Source: a virus (lineage: Duplodnaviria; Heunggongvirae; Uroviricota; Caudoviricetes). Taken from it: 64,000 bases of DNA. Below, in pieces: positions 19,810 through 38,852 of this stretch (positions are counted from its first letter, which is position 1; every line of letters begins with the position of its first letter). The translations under genes were made by a program, and so were the position numbers. Where the stretch lies: positions 19,927-83,926 of the IMG/VR virus record IMGVR_UViG_2802428982_000005. One strand, given 5' to 3'. Below the pieces are notes generated by a model. The model did not search any database and had not been told where the DNA came from. It was given only the letters and a program-made list of their open reading frames with translations.

Positions 19810-21420
19810 TCACTCAAACTCCCCTCGTTCCCATCGCGCGATCTCCTCGTCGTCGGGCCATTCATGGATTACGGGTACCGGTTCTGGCTCCGGTATCCCC
19901 TTGGATTCGGCCCACGCCGCCGCGGCGCAGGCAACCAGCGGAGAGGCGTCGACCGGGCTTCCCTTGCGGTCGAATACCCATGCGTCACCTAGTGATTTCG
20001 CTGCGGCGGATGCGGCGGCGGTGTCTAGTGCTGCCTGGGGCCGGTGCTTGATGCCGCGTTGCACGAGGCCGTCGTAGAAGTCGCCGCACGCCTTCGCGAG
20101 GTCCGGGCCGCCCCACTCCAGCACTGGGATTTCGGCCTTTTCCATGCCCTCGATCAGCCCGGAGGCTGGCGCACCGCGGACCTGTACAGCCACTGCGACG
20201 AACTTTCCGGCGCGTGTGGAGTCGGTGAACCATGGGATGATCCAGTCGGTTCCGCGTCCGGCCTTCACGACTTCGACGTGTAGAAGGCCGTCCGCGCGGC
20301 GCGCCGCGATGGCGATATATGCGCGGGAGCGTTGGAAGTTGACGTCTACGGCAGCCCACACAGGCGCCCCCTCAGCCCTGCGTGAGTCCGGGTCCATCGT
20401 TTCCGCCCAGTGCTCGGGCTCGATGATTCCGGGCAACAAGGTGTCGACCCATTGGCATAGGTGCTCGGTCTTGAATCCGGCGATGTCGCCGCGCTTCGCC
20501 TCGTACTTGGCGGCCAGTGACTCCTCGTCGTGGCCCGGCAGCCAGCCGAGGGCGGGGTTGGCCATGGGCCACACCGACCGGTTGCTCGGCTCGGCGTCGT
20601 CCGGTGCCGACCACTCGAATAGGCCGGTGCTGGTGCCGTCGGTGTCCCGCCGGTAGATGTCTTCTAGGCAGCCCTGCCGGACAGAACGAAGCACCATGGA
20701 CCGCTTGTCACCGGCGTTGGATGCGCAGACAACTTGGCTGTTCGGCCGGGCAGTAGTGGTCGGGACGATGGCATCCCAGGCCAGCCAGTCGTGGTGCTCG
20801 CGCAGCTCGTCCAGCTGCGCCAGATCGACGGAGAAGGAACGGCCACCCTTGCGGTTTGCGGCGACCGCGCGCCATGACCGGCGGCCAGTCAGCAGCATGC
20901 GGTGCTTGCCGTTCGTCTGTACGTGCTTGACGAATTCCCGCTTGAGGGCTGGGCATTCGTCGACGTTGATGACGACTTCGCCCAGCGTCGCCTCGGCGTA
21001 CTCCAGACCCTGCGCGGCGATCAGGACCGTCTTCGCCGCCGGTGGCTTCCCGACCATCGGGCGGCCGGTCTTGTTGAGGTACAGGCGCCAGAGGCCGAGG
21101 CCGCGCAGCCACTGGGTTTTGCCGTTCTGGCGGGCGATCAATATGCAGACGGTGCGGAACCTGAATCCGGTTCCGTTGGCGCCCTTCTCCAGGGCATGGA
21201 TGTAAAGCCACTTCTGGTACGGCAGAAGTTCCCAGTTGACGACGTTTTCGAGAAAGTCGATGCAGCCAAAGCCCCACGAGGTAGCGGGGTTTAGACCACA
21301 CCCGCATTCGCAGGTCTCGGGTAGGTCGGGGTCGCAGTGATCAGCTAGGGGTGGCGTGAACAGCCTGGGGACCGTGTGTCCCCTAAGCGTTCTGTCGAGA
21401 ACGCCACTCGTCGAGGTCAC
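19810..21420 (-). CDS. terminase large subunit (536 aa)
   Basis: Size; Walker-like ATPase region, then nuclease region; preceded by a small HTH subunit, followed by the portal. Confidence 0.8.
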   Translation of the reverse strand: MTSTSGVLDRTLRGHTVPRLFTPPLADHCDPDLPETCECGCGLNPATSWGFGCIDFLENVVNWELLPYQKWLYIHALEKGANGTGFRFRTVCILIARQNGKTQWLRGLGLWRLYLNKTGRPMVGKPPAAKTVLIAAQGLEYAEATLGEVVINVDECPALKREFVKHVQTNGKHRMLLTGRRSWRAVAANRKGGRSFSVDLAQLDELREHHDWLAWDAIVPTTTARPNSQVVCASNAGDKRSMVLRSVRQGCLEDIYRRDTDGTSTGLFEWSAPDDAEPSNRSVWPMANPALGWLPGHDEESLAAKYEAKRGDIAGFKTEHLCQWVDTLLPGIIEPEHWAETMDPDSRRAEGAPVWAAVDVNFQRSRAYIAIAARRADGLLHVEVVKAGRGTDWIIPWFTDSTRAGKFVAVAVQVRGAPASGLIEGMEKAEIPVLEWGGPDLAKACGDFYDGLVQRGIKHRPQAALDTAAASAAAKSLGDAWVFDRKGSPVDASPLVACAAAAWAESKGIPEPEPVPVIHEWPDDEEIARWERGEFE

Positions 21421-26929: not shown

Positions 26930-27267
26930 TTGCCCTTGGCGCCCTTACCGGTGTCGGCTGTGGTCCCGTCCTCGCCGCCGGTCGTGTACGCCTCGCCGGT
27001 GTGCACGGTCTCCAGCACCTCGGGGTCCTGATTGGTGGCATCGCTGAGGTGGGCGTCCGGCGCGACGATCAACGACTCCGGCGGCACGCCGTCGAGGCTG
27101 ACGCCGTCCATGACGGTGCCGGTCGGGACGGCGGGGGCGGCACGACGCCCGGACTCGACGGCGGCCAGCGTCACTGTGCCCTCTGCGGTGAGGTCAATGG
27201 TGTATTCGTCGACATCCTGCAAGTAGATGACGCGGTCGTTGAAGCGGATCTCAAGGCGTGCGGCCAT
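26926..27267 (-). CDS. hypothetical protein (113 aa)
   Basis: ORF. Confidence 0.4.
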   Translation of the reverse strand: MAARLEIRFNDRVIYLQDVDEYTIDLTAEGTVTLAAVESGRRAAPAVPTGTVMDGVSLDGVPPESLIVAPDAHLSDATNQDPEVLETVHTGEAYTTGGEDGTTADTGKGAKGK

Positions 27268-27556
27268 CAGGGTCTCCTAAGTTGGGGAAGAGGGACTTGA
27301 AGGGGATGGACGGGAGACCGCGCAAGCGCGAAAGTAGCTCCGTCACAATGGTTTTAGCCAGTTCGTCGAACTTGTTGAGGCCAGCGCGGTCCAGGATTGC
27401 GCGGGTAACGGCGTCGGCGATCACGGGCAGCTTGTCGTCAAGTTCACCGATTCGCGCGAACACGCGGTCCAGTACCCGGTCAATCAGCTTGTCCAGCAGC
27501 CGGTCGATCAGTGTGTTTGATGGACGCCGAGCGGGCTGGACTTGGGAATCATCCAT
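27251..27556 (-). CDS. hypothetical protein (101 aa)
   Basis: ATG 27556..27554 with AGGGAG SD ~10 nt upstream; the ORF-track N-terminus is rejected as run-in. Confidence 0.5.
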   Translation of the reverse strand: MDDSQVQPARRPSNTLIDRLLDKLIDRVLDRVFARIGELDDKLPVIADAVTRAILDRAGLNKFDELAKTIVTELLSRLRGLPSIPFKSLFPNLGDPDGRTP

Positions 27557-27902
27557 TGCGCGTATCTCCCTGTGTAACAAAATGTTTGGGGGTGCACCGG
27601 GCCTAGTTACCCGTTCGGCCGTGACGCGACAGCTGCCCAGCTTGTTCCACGCGAGGGCAAATGGCGGCCCGGTGCACCGGCCTTTGGGGCTTCCCGCCAG
27701 CGCGGCGCAGCGCGCCCTCACCCCCAAGGAGTTGGGGCGTCCTGGGCATCGGCGTACCACCCGCCCGACAGGCCGGGCAGCGATGTGGTGGCGTACCTGG
27801 TGACCCCGGCGCCGAGCACGCGGCGAACCTGGGGCCGCGCGCTTACCGGCAGTATCAGCGGTACCGGGTTGACGCGGCGCGGGTCGGGAAGCGGATAAAC
27901 GA

Positions 27903-27932: not shown

Positions 27933-28015
27933 CAAGGCACAGCGGTGCCAACGACATATGTATAACACGTGATACGGGCGCATGCCCGTACGCAGATCAG
28001 ACGGGTGTGTCGGGC

Positions 28016-36499: not shown

Positions 36500-37300
36500 T
36501 ATTGGGCGGGTGATGTGAACGTGTGTGTGCTGACCGGGATTTCGCTTTTACACCCGCACTGGGTGCGGGCGACAGGGCTTGAACCTGCATTACCAATTGA
36601 GTGATAACCGACCGAGCGTCCTGTTCACATCGGGTTGTCTGTCGTGCGAGCGCGTAGGTGGTGTGGGCGTGTGGGGTGCTGACCGGCGTATGTGGACAAT
36701 TGCCTCTACCAATTGGGCTACACCCCGCGAGCGAGGTGGTGGGGCTCGAACCCACACCTGACTGTTTTGGTAACCGACCTGCGTCCTGTCCACACCGCCT
36801 GCGCGCGTGCGTCTGCTGGTGTTTGAGGTGGTGTGAGCGTGTGGGTGTCGTCCGGGTTTTAGCGCTCTAGGCCACTGAGCTACAACCACTTTCGTGGTTG
36901 ACGGGATTCGAACCCGCGTCTCTCTCGGGAAAGGAGATAACCGAACGAAGTCCTGTTCACACCTTGTTATGTATGGAGTTGTGTTGGGTGATGGGGCGAA
37001 CGTGTGTGTGCTGACCGGGGTTTAGCGCTCTGCCAACTGAGCTACAGCCGGGGGCTGGCTGGCGGGACTCGAACCCGCGACCTCTCCATTAGCAAGTGGT
37101 AACCGACCTGCGTCCTGCTCGCACCATCTGGTGTCTATGTAGTTGTGGTCTGGGGAACGACGTGAACGTGGTTGGCGCTGGGCGGGTTTGGCTCCATTTC
37201 CCCGCTTGGCTCGGGGCGTTCTAACTTGAACTACGGGGGCGTACCCCGAGATAACCGACCTGCATCCTGTTCACGTCGTCCGCTGTTTTGTTGTCTCAAA
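36500..37300 (-). ncRNA. tandem array of about five ~165-nt tRNA-like / Y-RNA-like repeat units
   Basis: On the minus strand: D-arms GCUCAGUUGGCAGAGC, GCUCAGUGGCCUAGAGC, GCCCAAUUGGUAGAGGC; T-arms GCGGGUUCGAGUCCCGC, GCGGGUUCGAAUCCCGU, GUGGGUUCGAGCCCCAC, CAGGUUCAAGCCCUG; acceptor-like stem capped by a loop (CAACCAC-GAAAG-GUGGUUG); conserved 25-nt motif GUGAACAGGACGCAGGUCGGUUAUC (plus 36603, 36771, 36936, 37098, 37250); CA-rich spacers; exact 22-nt repeat gaacgtgtgtgtgctgaccggg at 36517 and 36998. Confidence 0.6.
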
Positions 37301-37304
37301 ACGA

Positions 37305-37322
37305 AGCTATACCGCGGTATAG
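37305..37322 (-). terminator. perfect 18-bp palindrome gctataccgcggtatagc followed on the minus strand by UUCGUUUUGAG; terminator or protein-binding site
   Basis: Between the secreted-protein gene (stop 37378) and the Y-RNA-like array. Confidence 0.45.
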
Positions 37323-37377
37323 CGGTGCGGCAACAGGATTGGGGCTTGGCTGTATAGCCGCTCGGTAGCCGCGACCA

Positions 37378-37716
37378 TCACCGTCCGGTACCAGCCCCTC
37401 CACTCGCCGAGGACCCACCGCTACCGGCAGACCCGCTACCAGCGCTGTTACCTCCAGTTTCGCCCGCGCCAGGACTTGCCGGAGCTGTAGGTGGATGGTG
37501 CTGGCCCTCGGGGCATTCCGGGTCCTCCGGGGGCTTGTATCCGCCGCCGCCTGCTGGCGTGAAGGGTGCCGGTCGGGCACCCAGGCAGGTCTTGGCGTCT
37601 GTCGCGGCGTACAGGCAACGGTCGGGGAACGCGGAAGCGGTGGCAGTTGGGAGTGCCGTTAGGGCGGCTATGGCGGCGCCCATGACGGAAATACGTTTTA
37701 CATAAAGGCTTTTCAT
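37378..37716 (-). CDS. small secreted Gly/Ser/Pro-rich protein with Sec signal peptide (~112 aa)
   Basis: MKSLYVKRISVMGAAIAALTALPTATASA|F signal peptide (AxA site); low-GC 5' region; start ATG 37716 (ORF-track 37752). Confidence 0.5.
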   Translation of the reverse strand: MKSLYVKRISVMGAAIAALTALPTATASAFPDRCLYAATDAKTCLGARPAPFTPAGGGGYKPPEDPECPEGQHHPPTAPASPGAGETGGNSAGSGSAGSGGSSASGGAGTGR

Positions 37717-37800
37717 GACTCGTAACGTATACAGAGCTATACACATAAGCAAGGCCGCTACGGCTTGTTCTTACGTATAGTGAACTATACATTCTGAGCC

Positions 37801-38052
37801 ATGGCAAGAGTGACACTCACAGCGAAAGCGCGGATGCGCGCCAACAAGCGCCGCGTCATGGCAGCACTCCGCAACGCCGGTATGCCGCTCCTCGTCGACA
37901 ACCGCGACGGCATCTGGCGCCTCTACTTCATAGGCACCGACGACACCGGTGTAGAGCTGGAGCTGATCCTGGTCCCACACGCCACCCAGGACTGGACCTG
38001 GGTATGTATCCACGCCATGCCCACCAAGTACCGGAAAGGAGGGGCACAATGA
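37801..38052 (+). CDS. small protein, possible BrnT/RelE-superfamily-like toxin (83 aa); first gene of the only plus-strand cassette inside the prophage
   Basis: C-terminal IGTDDTGVELELILVPHATQDWTWVCIHAMPTKYRK resembles the BrnT/DUF497 C-terminus; opposite orientation to all flanking genes. Confidence 0.35.
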   Translation: MARVTLTAKARMRANKRRVMAALRNAGMPLLVDNRDGIWRLYFIGTDDTGVELELILVPHATQDWTWVCIHAMPTKYRKGGAQ

Positions 38053-38252
38053 CCCTCATGAGCAGTCACAGCGAAGCCGACCTCAAGCGCCTCACCTTCG
38101 GCGATGACCTGGTCGTCGACGACATCGACCTCGACAAGGAAGAGTTCCTTGTCGGCGACGGAGTCCGGCTGACCAACGAAGCGGCCGAGAAGCTCGCAGC
38201 CGAAACCCTAGCCGAGGTCGAACGGCGAAACATCCAGGCAGAGAAAGGCTAG
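38049..38252 (+). CDS. small acidic protein, possible antitoxin-like partner (67 aa)
   Basis: ATG 38049 overlaps the upstream stop (ATGA); acidic; RLTNEAAEKLAAETLAEVERR helix. Confidence 0.35.
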   Translation: MTLMSSHSEADLKRLTFGDDLVVDDIDLDKEEFLVGDGVRLTNEAAEKLAAETLAEVERRNIQAEKG

Positions 38253-38256
38253 CCAG

Positions 38257-38418
38257 ATGGACGCGGTATACGTAGTAGATACAGGCAGCGAAGAGATCTA
38301 CGTTATCGCTGACCACGAATGCGCCGCGGCCGAGAAAGTGGCGGCGATGGTCGGTCACGAGGTCAACTACGCCGAGCACTATTCGGACGATCTAGACGAC
38401 ATGCCCGGGACGGACTAA
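38257..38418 (+). CDS. small acidic hypothetical protein (53 aa)
   Basis: ATG 38257 with GAAAGG SD 10 nt upstream; hand-translated MDAVYVVDTGSEEIYVIADHECAAAEKVAAMVGHEVNYAEHYSDDLDDMPGTD; below the ORF-track size cutoff. Confidence 0.4.
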   Translation: MDAVYVVDTGSEEIYVIADHECAAAEKVAAMVGHEVNYAEHYSDDLDDMPGTD

Positions 38419-38852
38419 CCAGGGATGCTTCGGACTGCCATCACTCGGCTGTACCAGCGTGCCTCTTCCTCGGGTGTGGTCGGCGCTGGCGGGTCGTTGT
38501 TCCGCATGTAGCGTTCCCACGCGGAACGGCGGCGGGTCTCGGCGTGGTGTTTCTCAGCGGCCTTGCGGGCGGCGCGTAGGTCGTTGCCGCAGTAGAGGTC
38601 CCGGGATGACGGAATAGCGTGCCAGTCGCGCGAGCCGGGCACGTATTCAGTGATCCAGCAGCGTTTAACGACCTCGGCGGTGGTGTTGGTTGACGGGTCC
38701 CAGAGGCGGTACTCCGTTGTCCGCGGCAACAGGGTGTACGTCCCGCCGATGTCGTCGCGGTGGTGGGCGACCCACAACCAGCGGCCCTTGTGCCAACGAT
38801 CCTCGATGCGTTTCCATGCCAGGGTCACGTCAACGAAGGCGATGCCGGTCAT
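38415..38852 (-). CDS. hypothetical protein (145 aa)
   Basis: ORF; its stop overlaps the stop of the convergent plus-strand cassette. Confidence 0.45.
   Translation of the reverse strand: MTGIAFVDVTLAWKRIEDRWHKGRWLWVAHHRDDIGGTYTLLPRTTEYRLWDPSTNTTAEVVKRCWITEYVPGSRDWHAIPSSRDLYCGNDLRAARKAAEKHHAETRRRSAWERYMRNNDPPAPTTPEEEARWYSRVMAVRSIPG

Follow-up and report, generated by a model that had tools for sequence, protein, structure and literature searches.

Among the minus-strand genes of a 64,000-nucleotide (nt) stretch of caudoviricete DNA (positions 19,927 to 83,926 of IMG/VR record IMGVR_UViG_2802428982_000005; hereafter the window), three short plus-strand open reading frames (ORFs) at 37801–38418 run against the direction of their neighbors, which raises the question of what this inverted cassette encodes and how it is controlled. 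We consider it likely that the first two genes, g1 and g2, form a type II toxin–antitoxin (TA) pair, carried as an accessory cassette by a cluster MabK prophage of Mycobacterium abscessus. Over the 1.6 kb surrounding the cassette, identity is 98.1% to Mycobacterium phage prophiT37-1 and 96.3% to prophiGD43A-5. Both of these M. abscessus prophages belong to cluster MabK and use the integration site attB-1 (PMC9934374; PMC8092301). Window positions and the corresponding prophiT37-1 record positions add up to 61380, and the window therefore consists of the first ~61 kb of the prophage in reverse, together with ~2.6 kb of host DNA with tRNA-Arg and tRNA-Ser.

The TA identity of the cassette has already been annotated and published. 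Gene 1 is labeled “BrnT-like toxin” in the GenBank records of both prophiT37-1 and prophiGD43A-5, gene 2 is labeled “antitoxin” in prophiGD43A-5, and a TA system on the opposite strand within the early lytic genes of prophiGD43A-5 was listed by Dedrick et al. 2021 (PMC8092301), so that the main part of the finding is already known from the literature. Our analysis adds a link to the toxin RelS, the absence of a Lys-His pair from the active site, an antitoxin lacking a ribbon-helix-helix (RHH) domain, a probable toxin start at ATG 37801, a palindrome shared with other genes and an unannotated neighboring gene. Of these, the domain-less antitoxin, the His-less toxin and the putative shared operator are new observations of modest weight.

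Gene 1 (37801–38052, plus strand) encodes a basic predicted toxin of 83 amino acids (aa), which is RelS/BrnT-like and belongs to the RelE superfamily. Gene 2 (38049–38252, plus) encodes an acidic predicted antitoxin of 67 aa that resembles the N-terminal half of BrnA-like antitoxins without their RHH, and gene 3 (38257–38418, plus) an acidic protein of 53 aa in a variable third slot outside the TA core. Their computed isoelectric points (pI) are 10.3, 4.3 and 4.05, respectively. Genes 1 and 2 overlap in an ATGA (38049–38052), 4 nt separate genes 2 and 3, and the stop of gene 3 (38416–38418) overlaps that of the convergent minus-strand gene at 38415–38852. In these respects, including the acidity of gene 2, the layout proposed by the initial annotation was borne out. 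Homologues were found for all three ORFs. The ratio of nonsynonymous to synonymous substitution rates (dN/dS) for gene 1 was 0.10–0.32 over all prophage pairs compared and 0.10–0.19 against the most divergent relatives (loci L014 and L015); the corresponding ranges for gene 2 were 0–0.44 and 0.17–0.44, with closer prophage pairs holding too few differences to be informative. For gene 3, comparison with its prophiGD43A-4 homologue gave a dN of 0.20 and a saturated dS. Judged by these comparisons, the three ORFs are genuine genes under purifying selection.

Other parts of the initial description required revision. The genes directly flanking the cassette are all on the minus strand, and the AT skew changes sign over 37800–38400, but the cassette is not the only plus-strand island of the prophage, as had been stated: a second plus-strand gene, matching the hypothetical protein gp60 of prophiT37-1, lies at ~27258–27803 in the otherwise minus-strand prophage body, and the immunity repressor at the att end (~60.9–61.4 kb) is also on the plus strand. 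The strong Shine-Dalgarno (SD) sequence assigned to the third gene in fact precedes gene 2, where AAGGAGGGG (38036–38044, plus) is embedded in the 3′ end of gene 1; gene 3 has the weaker GAGAAAGG, and gene 1 has none. Nor is the cassette fully self-contained, since a divergent 112-aa gene (37716→37378, minus) shares its control region. Genes 1 and 2 have the generic layout of a type II TA locus: they are small, adjacent, co-oriented and coupled in translation, the predicted toxin is basic and the predicted antitoxin acidic, and the two are conserved as a pair, which was present in every MabK-like locus examined. For one variant of gene 2, P0011, the collection lists 175 contigs and indexes 237 blocks, from which we judge the cassette to be widespread.

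The assignment of gene 1 to the RelE/BrnT group is based on several lines of evidence. PHROG 36779 (“toxin”) matches the protein with an E value of 6e-36. Homologues numbered eight in a direct search, 111 representatives in an exhaustive profile search and 1093 proteins in a second profile search, and nearly all of the matches listed are 70–100 aa long. The few named ones come from actinobacteria (Nocardioides, Agromyces, Gordonia and Gulosibacter) or are gp31 of Gordonia phage Eyre, and the source names of relatives include “DUF4258 domain-containing protein” (UniRef) and “BrnT-like toxin”. When a profile of 66 family sequences was searched against the PDB with hmmsearch, the single significant match was chain C (“Toxin”) of entry 9SDC (E 2.5e-8), and hhalign aligned the gene 1 family to this protein, RelS, with 95.5% probability (E 1.5e-8); pairwise BLASTP of gene 1 against RelS recovered a 21-residue core only (E 7e-4). 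An AlphaFold (AF2) model of gene 1, built from a 122-sequence alignment, reached a predicted local distance difference test score (pLDDT) of 91.7 and a predicted template modeling score of 0.80, with the topology beta-alpha-alpha-beta4, and the two top Foldseek matches were BrnT and 7vd7. From the model, gene 1 can be assigned with confidence a predicted RelE/BrnT fold resembling the BrnT crystal structure. The BrnT/RelE likeness noticed at first sight was thus substantiated by both the fold model and the RelS profile match, although 9SDC was among the matches of neither fold search (Foldseek PDB library up to April 2026).

RelS (Rv2663) is the toxin of the RelS-RelI system (Rv2663-Rv2664) of M. 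tuberculosis, whose structure is 9SDC (Han et al., NAR 2026; PMC13284704). It has a BrnT-like RelE fold and was found by experiment to be acutely toxic, cutting 16S rRNA after C1520 and before U1521, inside the anti-SD sequence, on assembled 30S subunits; the acidic N-terminal helix of RelI covers K9, H10, H64 and R69 of RelS and thereby occludes the basic site, neutralizing the toxin (PMC13284704). Gene 1 resembles RelS in being a homologous toxin of ~80 aa with the same predicted fold class and with the toxin gene placed first, and RelS residues R8, G42, D44, G47 and H64 are conserved as R11, G45, D47, G50 and H71. The systems differ in that RelS-RelI is chromosomal, whereas the present pair is prophage-borne. 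They also differ in their antitoxins: RelI has been described as a helix-turn-helix, ClpC2-like protein to which gene 2 is unrelated, and searches with the profiles of gene 2 and of its full-length relatives gave no match at E ≤ 10 to the 9SDC antitoxin chain.

The nature of gene 2 became apparent from the partners of more distant toxins. Close homologues of gene 2 were found only in Mycobacteroides and are all 61–67 aa long, whereas the genes 3′ of distant gene 1 relatives encode proteins of 102–119 aa (L004:4243-4602, L005:3229-3573 and Eyre gp30, the last annotated as BrnA antitoxin/RHH). The short and the long proteins share one family, phrog_25971. Of its 116 positions, gene 2 covers 12–55, and the long antitoxins extend from position 1 or 10 through 113–116. 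The long antitoxins end in an RHH: the L004 partner matches RHH_1 (PF01402) with 20.8 bits (cut-off 20.5), and the RHH portion of the full-length proteins has weak matches to ORF56, MazE7, CopG and Arc. A predicted 187-aa protein, P0055, combines a toxin, a gene 2-like segment and an RHH (RHH_5 and Arc matches) in one chain, which could reflect either a genuine fusion or a gene call resulting from read-through, and residues 14–49 of gene 2 align by BLASTP with its residues 89–123 (E 6e-5). A tblastn search with the RHH halves of three full-length antitoxins found no RHH remnant 3′ of gene 2 in the window or in two relatives, in a run that also missed the short similarity between gene 2 and the antitoxin N-termini, which was established by the PHROG profile and BLASTP. 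The partial phrog_25971 coverage, the alignment to P0055 and the lack of a remnant identify gene 2 as the toxin-proximal N-terminal half of a BrnA-like antitoxin, with a clean loss of the DNA-binding half. As a lineage, the shortened version is stable, under selection and widespread.

Modeled alone by AF2, gene 2 is disordered over residues 1–40 and has a helix at 43–65, with low confidence (pLDDT 57). Such predicted disorder followed by a helix is typical of antitoxin segments that bind a toxin and would be compatible with neutralization, though it is no proof of it. TA systems whose antitoxin has no DNA-binding domain are known, namely PaaA2-ParE2 with PaaR2 and epsilon-zeta with omega. The present pair resembles them in that only a toxin-binding segment is left of the antitoxin and control is presumably exerted in trans, and differs from them in that no dedicated regulator gene is linked to g1-g2. 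The nearest relatives characterized by annotation, Eyre gp31/gp30 (gp31 being labeled BrnT-like toxin) and the L004 and L005 pairs of metagenomic phages, have antitoxins in the same PHROG as gene 2, and the Eyre toxin is 63% identical to gene 1 and shares its His-less N-terminal motif ARRR; their antitoxins, however, are of full length and carry the RHH that the window antitoxin lacks. In unrelated phages (L005–L007), too, the pair forms an inverted island in a co-directional array of minus-strand genes.

The control region suggests how such an antitoxin might be accommodated. A −35-like hexamer, TTGTTC (37765–37770, plus), read by eye and conserved in related prophages, lies 17 nt before a −10-like hexamer, TACATT (37788–37793, plus), which is 7 nt from the A of ATG 37801. 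The palindrome GTATAGTGAACTATAC (37775–37790), a putative operator (O1), overlaps the spacer and the −10 and ends 10 nt before the gene 1 ATG. A second palindrome, GTATACAGAGCTATAC (37727–37742; O2), lies 48 bp from O1 and ends 10 nt before the ATG of the divergent ORF (37716), and a third, perfect copy, GTATAGTGCACTATAC (34269–34284), conserved in relatives, ends 10 nt before the ATG of a minus-strand gene (34258). An additional copy is intergenic, near a gene start (27960–27975). At the three starts 37801, 37716 and 34258, a TTGNNN- or TCGACA-type −35 is found 4 nt before the palindrome, and the last three bases of the palindrome open a TACNNT hexamer 7 nt from the A of the ATG; from this spacing, leaderless mRNAs are predicted, with a candidate operator across the spacer and −10. 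The pattern GTATA-N6-TATAC occurs four times in the window against 0.17 expected, and comparison of eight related prophages shows conserved half-sites, GTATAG and CTATAC, around 4 central nt that vary, the pattern that would be expected of a dimeric DNA-binding protein. A sigma-70 consensus scan of 37200–38700 called no promoter, the proposed site included, and the cassette promoter TTGTTC-17-TACATT, for which conservation speaks, would be a weak one. In addition, the GenBank start of the toxin, GTG 37810 (80 aa), differs from the one used here, ATG 37801 (83 aa). Because the N-terminus MAR[IV]xLTA is kept in gene 1 relatives and because the promoter spacing fits, ATG 37801 is probably the true start and the annotated one is three codons too short.

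The palindrome also precedes two or more further genes of the window, which suggests regulation by a factor, from the prophage or the host, that acts in trans. Further copies occur in the right arm of prophiGD43A-5 (L016), at 69101 (7 nt before the ATG of gene 109), 73200 and 73656, close to a polymorphic-toxin cassette that is expressed in lysogens (PMC8092301). Taken together, the sites suggest that MabK prophages have a small set of accessory genes regulated jointly through GTATAG-N4-CTATAC. That the palindrome serves as the operator of the immunity repressor was judged unlikely, as no CTATAC half-site was found near the repressor/early-promoter junction (60.9–61.4 kb). Just downstream of the plus-strand gene at 27258–27803, a terminator-like GC hairpin and a one-mismatch palindrome were also seen. 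The RHH-bearing relatives (Eyre, L004 and L005) have a different promoter: in place of GTATAG-N4-CTATAC palindromes, two CATGTAnTACATA boxes 31–32 bp apart flank a TTGAC −35, a classic layout for autoregulation by an RHH protein. The loss of the RHH thus appears to have been accompanied by a change of operator and by control in trans. A fuller scenario, which we put forward tentatively and regard as somewhat doubtful, is that the MabK lineage rewired a BrnT/RelS-type TA system, first losing the RHH and the CATGTAnTACATA boxes and then coming under the trans regulator of the GTATAG-N4-CTATAC regulon. If so, the regulon would comprise leaderless accessory genes, including a putative secreted protein and genes near the polymorphic-toxin cassette, and release of the toxin would be tied to a prophage-level signal instead of antitoxin turnover.

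A number of observations weigh against a functional TA pair. Scans of gene 1 with Pfam, NCBIfam and PADLOC were all empty, Pfam even at E ≤ 1. The gathering score of BrnT (PF04365) was reached neither by gene 1 nor by any of the relatives scanned (sets of 9 and 66), RelS itself scoring 13.2 bits (E 0.11) against the cut-off of 34.5; DUF4258 (PF14076) did not match gene 1, with sub-threshold matches in 7 of the 66 relatives (best E 0.0033), and the E values of the Foldseek matches were weak (~0.1). Gene 2 likewise had no match among Pfam RHH, NCBIfam and PADLOC models, and the C-terminal RHH that characterizes the antitoxin of BrnT-BrnA is absent from it. Of the searches suggested at the outset, the family models BrnT and RHH were therefore negative and the prediction of a RelE/BrnT fold was positive; with the curated libraries empty, the classification of genes 1–3 rests on profiles, PHROGs and structure. 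At the active site, K9, H10 and H64 of RelS correspond to Met12, Arg13 (or a one-residue deletion) and His71 of gene 1, so that only H64 is retained and two of the three toxicity residues are absent; R69 aligns with Met73, a state found family-wide. The near-N-terminal Lys-His pair of BrnT and RelS is thus missing, which, together with the lack of a PF04365 match and the RHH-less gene 2, also separates the pair from BrnT-BrnA of Brucella abortus (PDB 3U97). In one complete M. abscessus genome (L009; CP014951.1; 2304–4001), the toxin gene and the antitoxin gene are separated by an IS110-family element inserted precisely between them; the four C-terminal residues of the toxin are altered, the end of the insertion sequence regenerates the antitoxin SD (TAGGAGGGG), and both genes are intact but uncoupled. 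This insertion, without apparent harm, could indicate low toxicity. Finally, the RNA sequencing published for TA modules in PMC8092301 covers MabA1 and not MabK prophages, and if the palindrome binds a repressor active in the lysogen, the cassette could be silent there.

These points raise the alternative that gene 1 is a relic whose catalysis has been lost or weakened and that the pair is kept for a purpose other than toxin-mediated growth arrest, with gene 2 serving, for example, as an antitoxin decoy that counters RelS-like toxins of the host, or with gene 1 binding ribosomes or RNA without cutting. The missing Lys-His pair speaks for it, as K9A, H10A and H64A each severely lower the toxicity of RelS, and K9 and H10 are important in BrnT too (PMC13284704); the lost DNA-binding half of the antitoxin and the tolerated IS110 insertion point the same way. 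Set against this is the strong purifying selection on gene 1 (dN/dS 0.10–0.19 in the divergent comparisons), because of which we judge the gene to be functional, as well as the pattern of residues within the family. Over the wider gene 1 family, R11, D47, G50, H71 and P74 vary little or not at all, and Y77 and R78 are invariant in the nine closest relatives. The column of H10 holds His in 108 of 123 family members and is changed in the phage subclade, which includes gene 1, Eyre gp31 and the L004 and L005 toxins; since the His-to-Arg state is shared by pairs with a full RHH, the change is older than the shortening of the antitoxin and is found side by side with a canonical TA layout. The catalytic residues of RelE-family enzymes are notoriously flexible, and RelE of E. 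coli relies on Arg, Lys and Tyr in place of His. We therefore regard the relic as improbable and retain a functional TA pair as the preferred explanation, with the proviso that a mechanism identical to that of RelS cannot be assumed by analogy; the His-to-Arg active site could mean that the RNA target differs from that of RelS.

The shared palindrome bears on a second alternative, to which we likewise assign a low probability, namely that the pair acts in the lytic cycle. The palindrome promoters would be repressed in the lysogen and become active soon after induction or infection; in that case gene 1 would be an RNase that shuts off host translation or reprograms ribosomes, and gene 2 its buffer or timer, with no part in addiction or defense. 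The initial annotation had itself named conserved early lytic genes as an outcome that would speak against an addiction module, and the cassette does lie among the early lytic genes of related prophages, but on the opposite strand and already under the name of a TA system (PMC8092301). The orientation of the cassette, opposite to the lytic operon, argues against a lytic role. A palindrome over the −10 is in the classic position for repression, and the same palindrome precedes the gene at 34258 inside the early minus-strand array; on the other hand, it is absent from the repressor/early-promoter region, and its extra copies occur in the att-proximal right arm beside the polymorphic-toxin cassette expressed in lysogens (PMC8092301). 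The palindrome-associated genes look leaderless, and removal of the anti-SD as by RelS (PMC13284704) would in principle favor leaderless mRNAs, but gene 1 lacks the Lys-His pair of RelS. Moreover, the homologous pair of Gordonia phage Eyre lies beside the integrase and immunity repressor genes and is co-oriented with them.

Whether gene 3 belongs to the system was a further question, since known three-component systems (paaR-paaA-parE and omega-epsilon-zeta) supply a regulator for an antitoxin without a DNA-binding domain, as gene 2 is, and since the ORFs are tightly packed, with the 4-nt gap between genes 2 and 3. In such an arrangement gene 3 would be the missing regulator or a TA chaperone. 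Its composition and distribution make this very unlikely. The protein is very acidic, with a single basic residue, shows no DNA-binding signature, and had no family match in Pfam, NCBIfam, PADLOC or PHROG scans. Homologues with ~80% identity are found in MabJ and MabI prophages that have no gene 1 homologue, and beside the same g1-g2 pair in other MabK-like prophages the slot is filled by ORFs of 111+83+83 aa, 111+102+67 aa, 155 aa or 94 aa. Because it is present elsewhere without the toxin and replaced beside other g1-g2 pairs, gene 3 is a passenger, unrelated to the module and not co-inherited with g1-g2, and was rejected as a TA regulator. The suggestion of a three-gene TA-like cassette therefore holds in substance for genes 1 and 2, and the module has two genes, not three.

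For the type II TA pair preferred here, the following mode of action can be proposed. A weak SigA-type promoter would give a leaderless g1-g2-g3 transcript starting at the gene 1 ATG; gene 1, having no SD, would be translated modestly, and gene 2, with its strong SD and ATGA coupling, would be produced in excess. Most likely, the acidic and largely disordered gene 2 protein would wrap over the basic face of gene 1, masking and neutralizing the toxin. Because gene 2 has lost the C-terminal RHH, the pair would probably be unable to repress its own promoter. When gene 2 is depleted, or when the factor bound at the operator changes state, free gene 1 would most likely block translation by RNA cleavage; by analogy with RelS its target could be the 3′ end of 16S rRNA, and its chemistry may differ. 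In the lysogen, the most probable role of the pair would be defense against heterotypic phages or retention of the prophage, in line with what has been suggested for further TA modules of mycobacterial prophages (PMC8092301). Phage therapy is in use against M. abscessus, a drug-resistant pathogen, and prophage TA modules are candidate barriers to therapeutic phages. In this context the RelS-family link provides a concrete hypothesis for the target of gene 1, and the RHH-less antitoxin with its shared palindrome suggests a regulatory arrangement of note, while current understanding is not overturned.

The gene that shares the control region of the cassette, the divergent 112-aa ORF (37716→37378, minus), is not annotated in GenBank. 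Its N-terminal segment, MKSLYVKRISVMGAAIAALTALPTATASA, resembles a signal peptide when judged by eye, and the protein has four Cys and a Gly/Ser-rich tail. It is kept in six related prophages, in one of them with an in-frame 3-aa indel, at a dN/dS of ~0.15, and different genes occupy the slot in L014 and L015; public annotations thus miss a gene for a putative secreted protein beside the cassette. A terminator-like hairpin with the stem CTATAC-CGCG-GTATAG lies 3′ of this ORF (37306–37323, minus), and its stem contains the half-sites of the operator palindrome in everted order. In addition, three sub-threshold matches to YrlA (Y RNA-like; RF02553) were observed at 36677–37106 (minus), scoring 28–39 bits where the gathering threshold is 69 (best E 1.3e-6), directly upstream of a Ro-like TROVE/vWA gene (34666–36489, minus). 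ARAGORN found no tRNA in this part of the window; at the corresponding site of prophiGD43A-5 it reports a 79-nt ‘tRNA-Thr(tgt)’, also annotated in GenBank, that probably represents a Y RNA’s tRNA-like arm.

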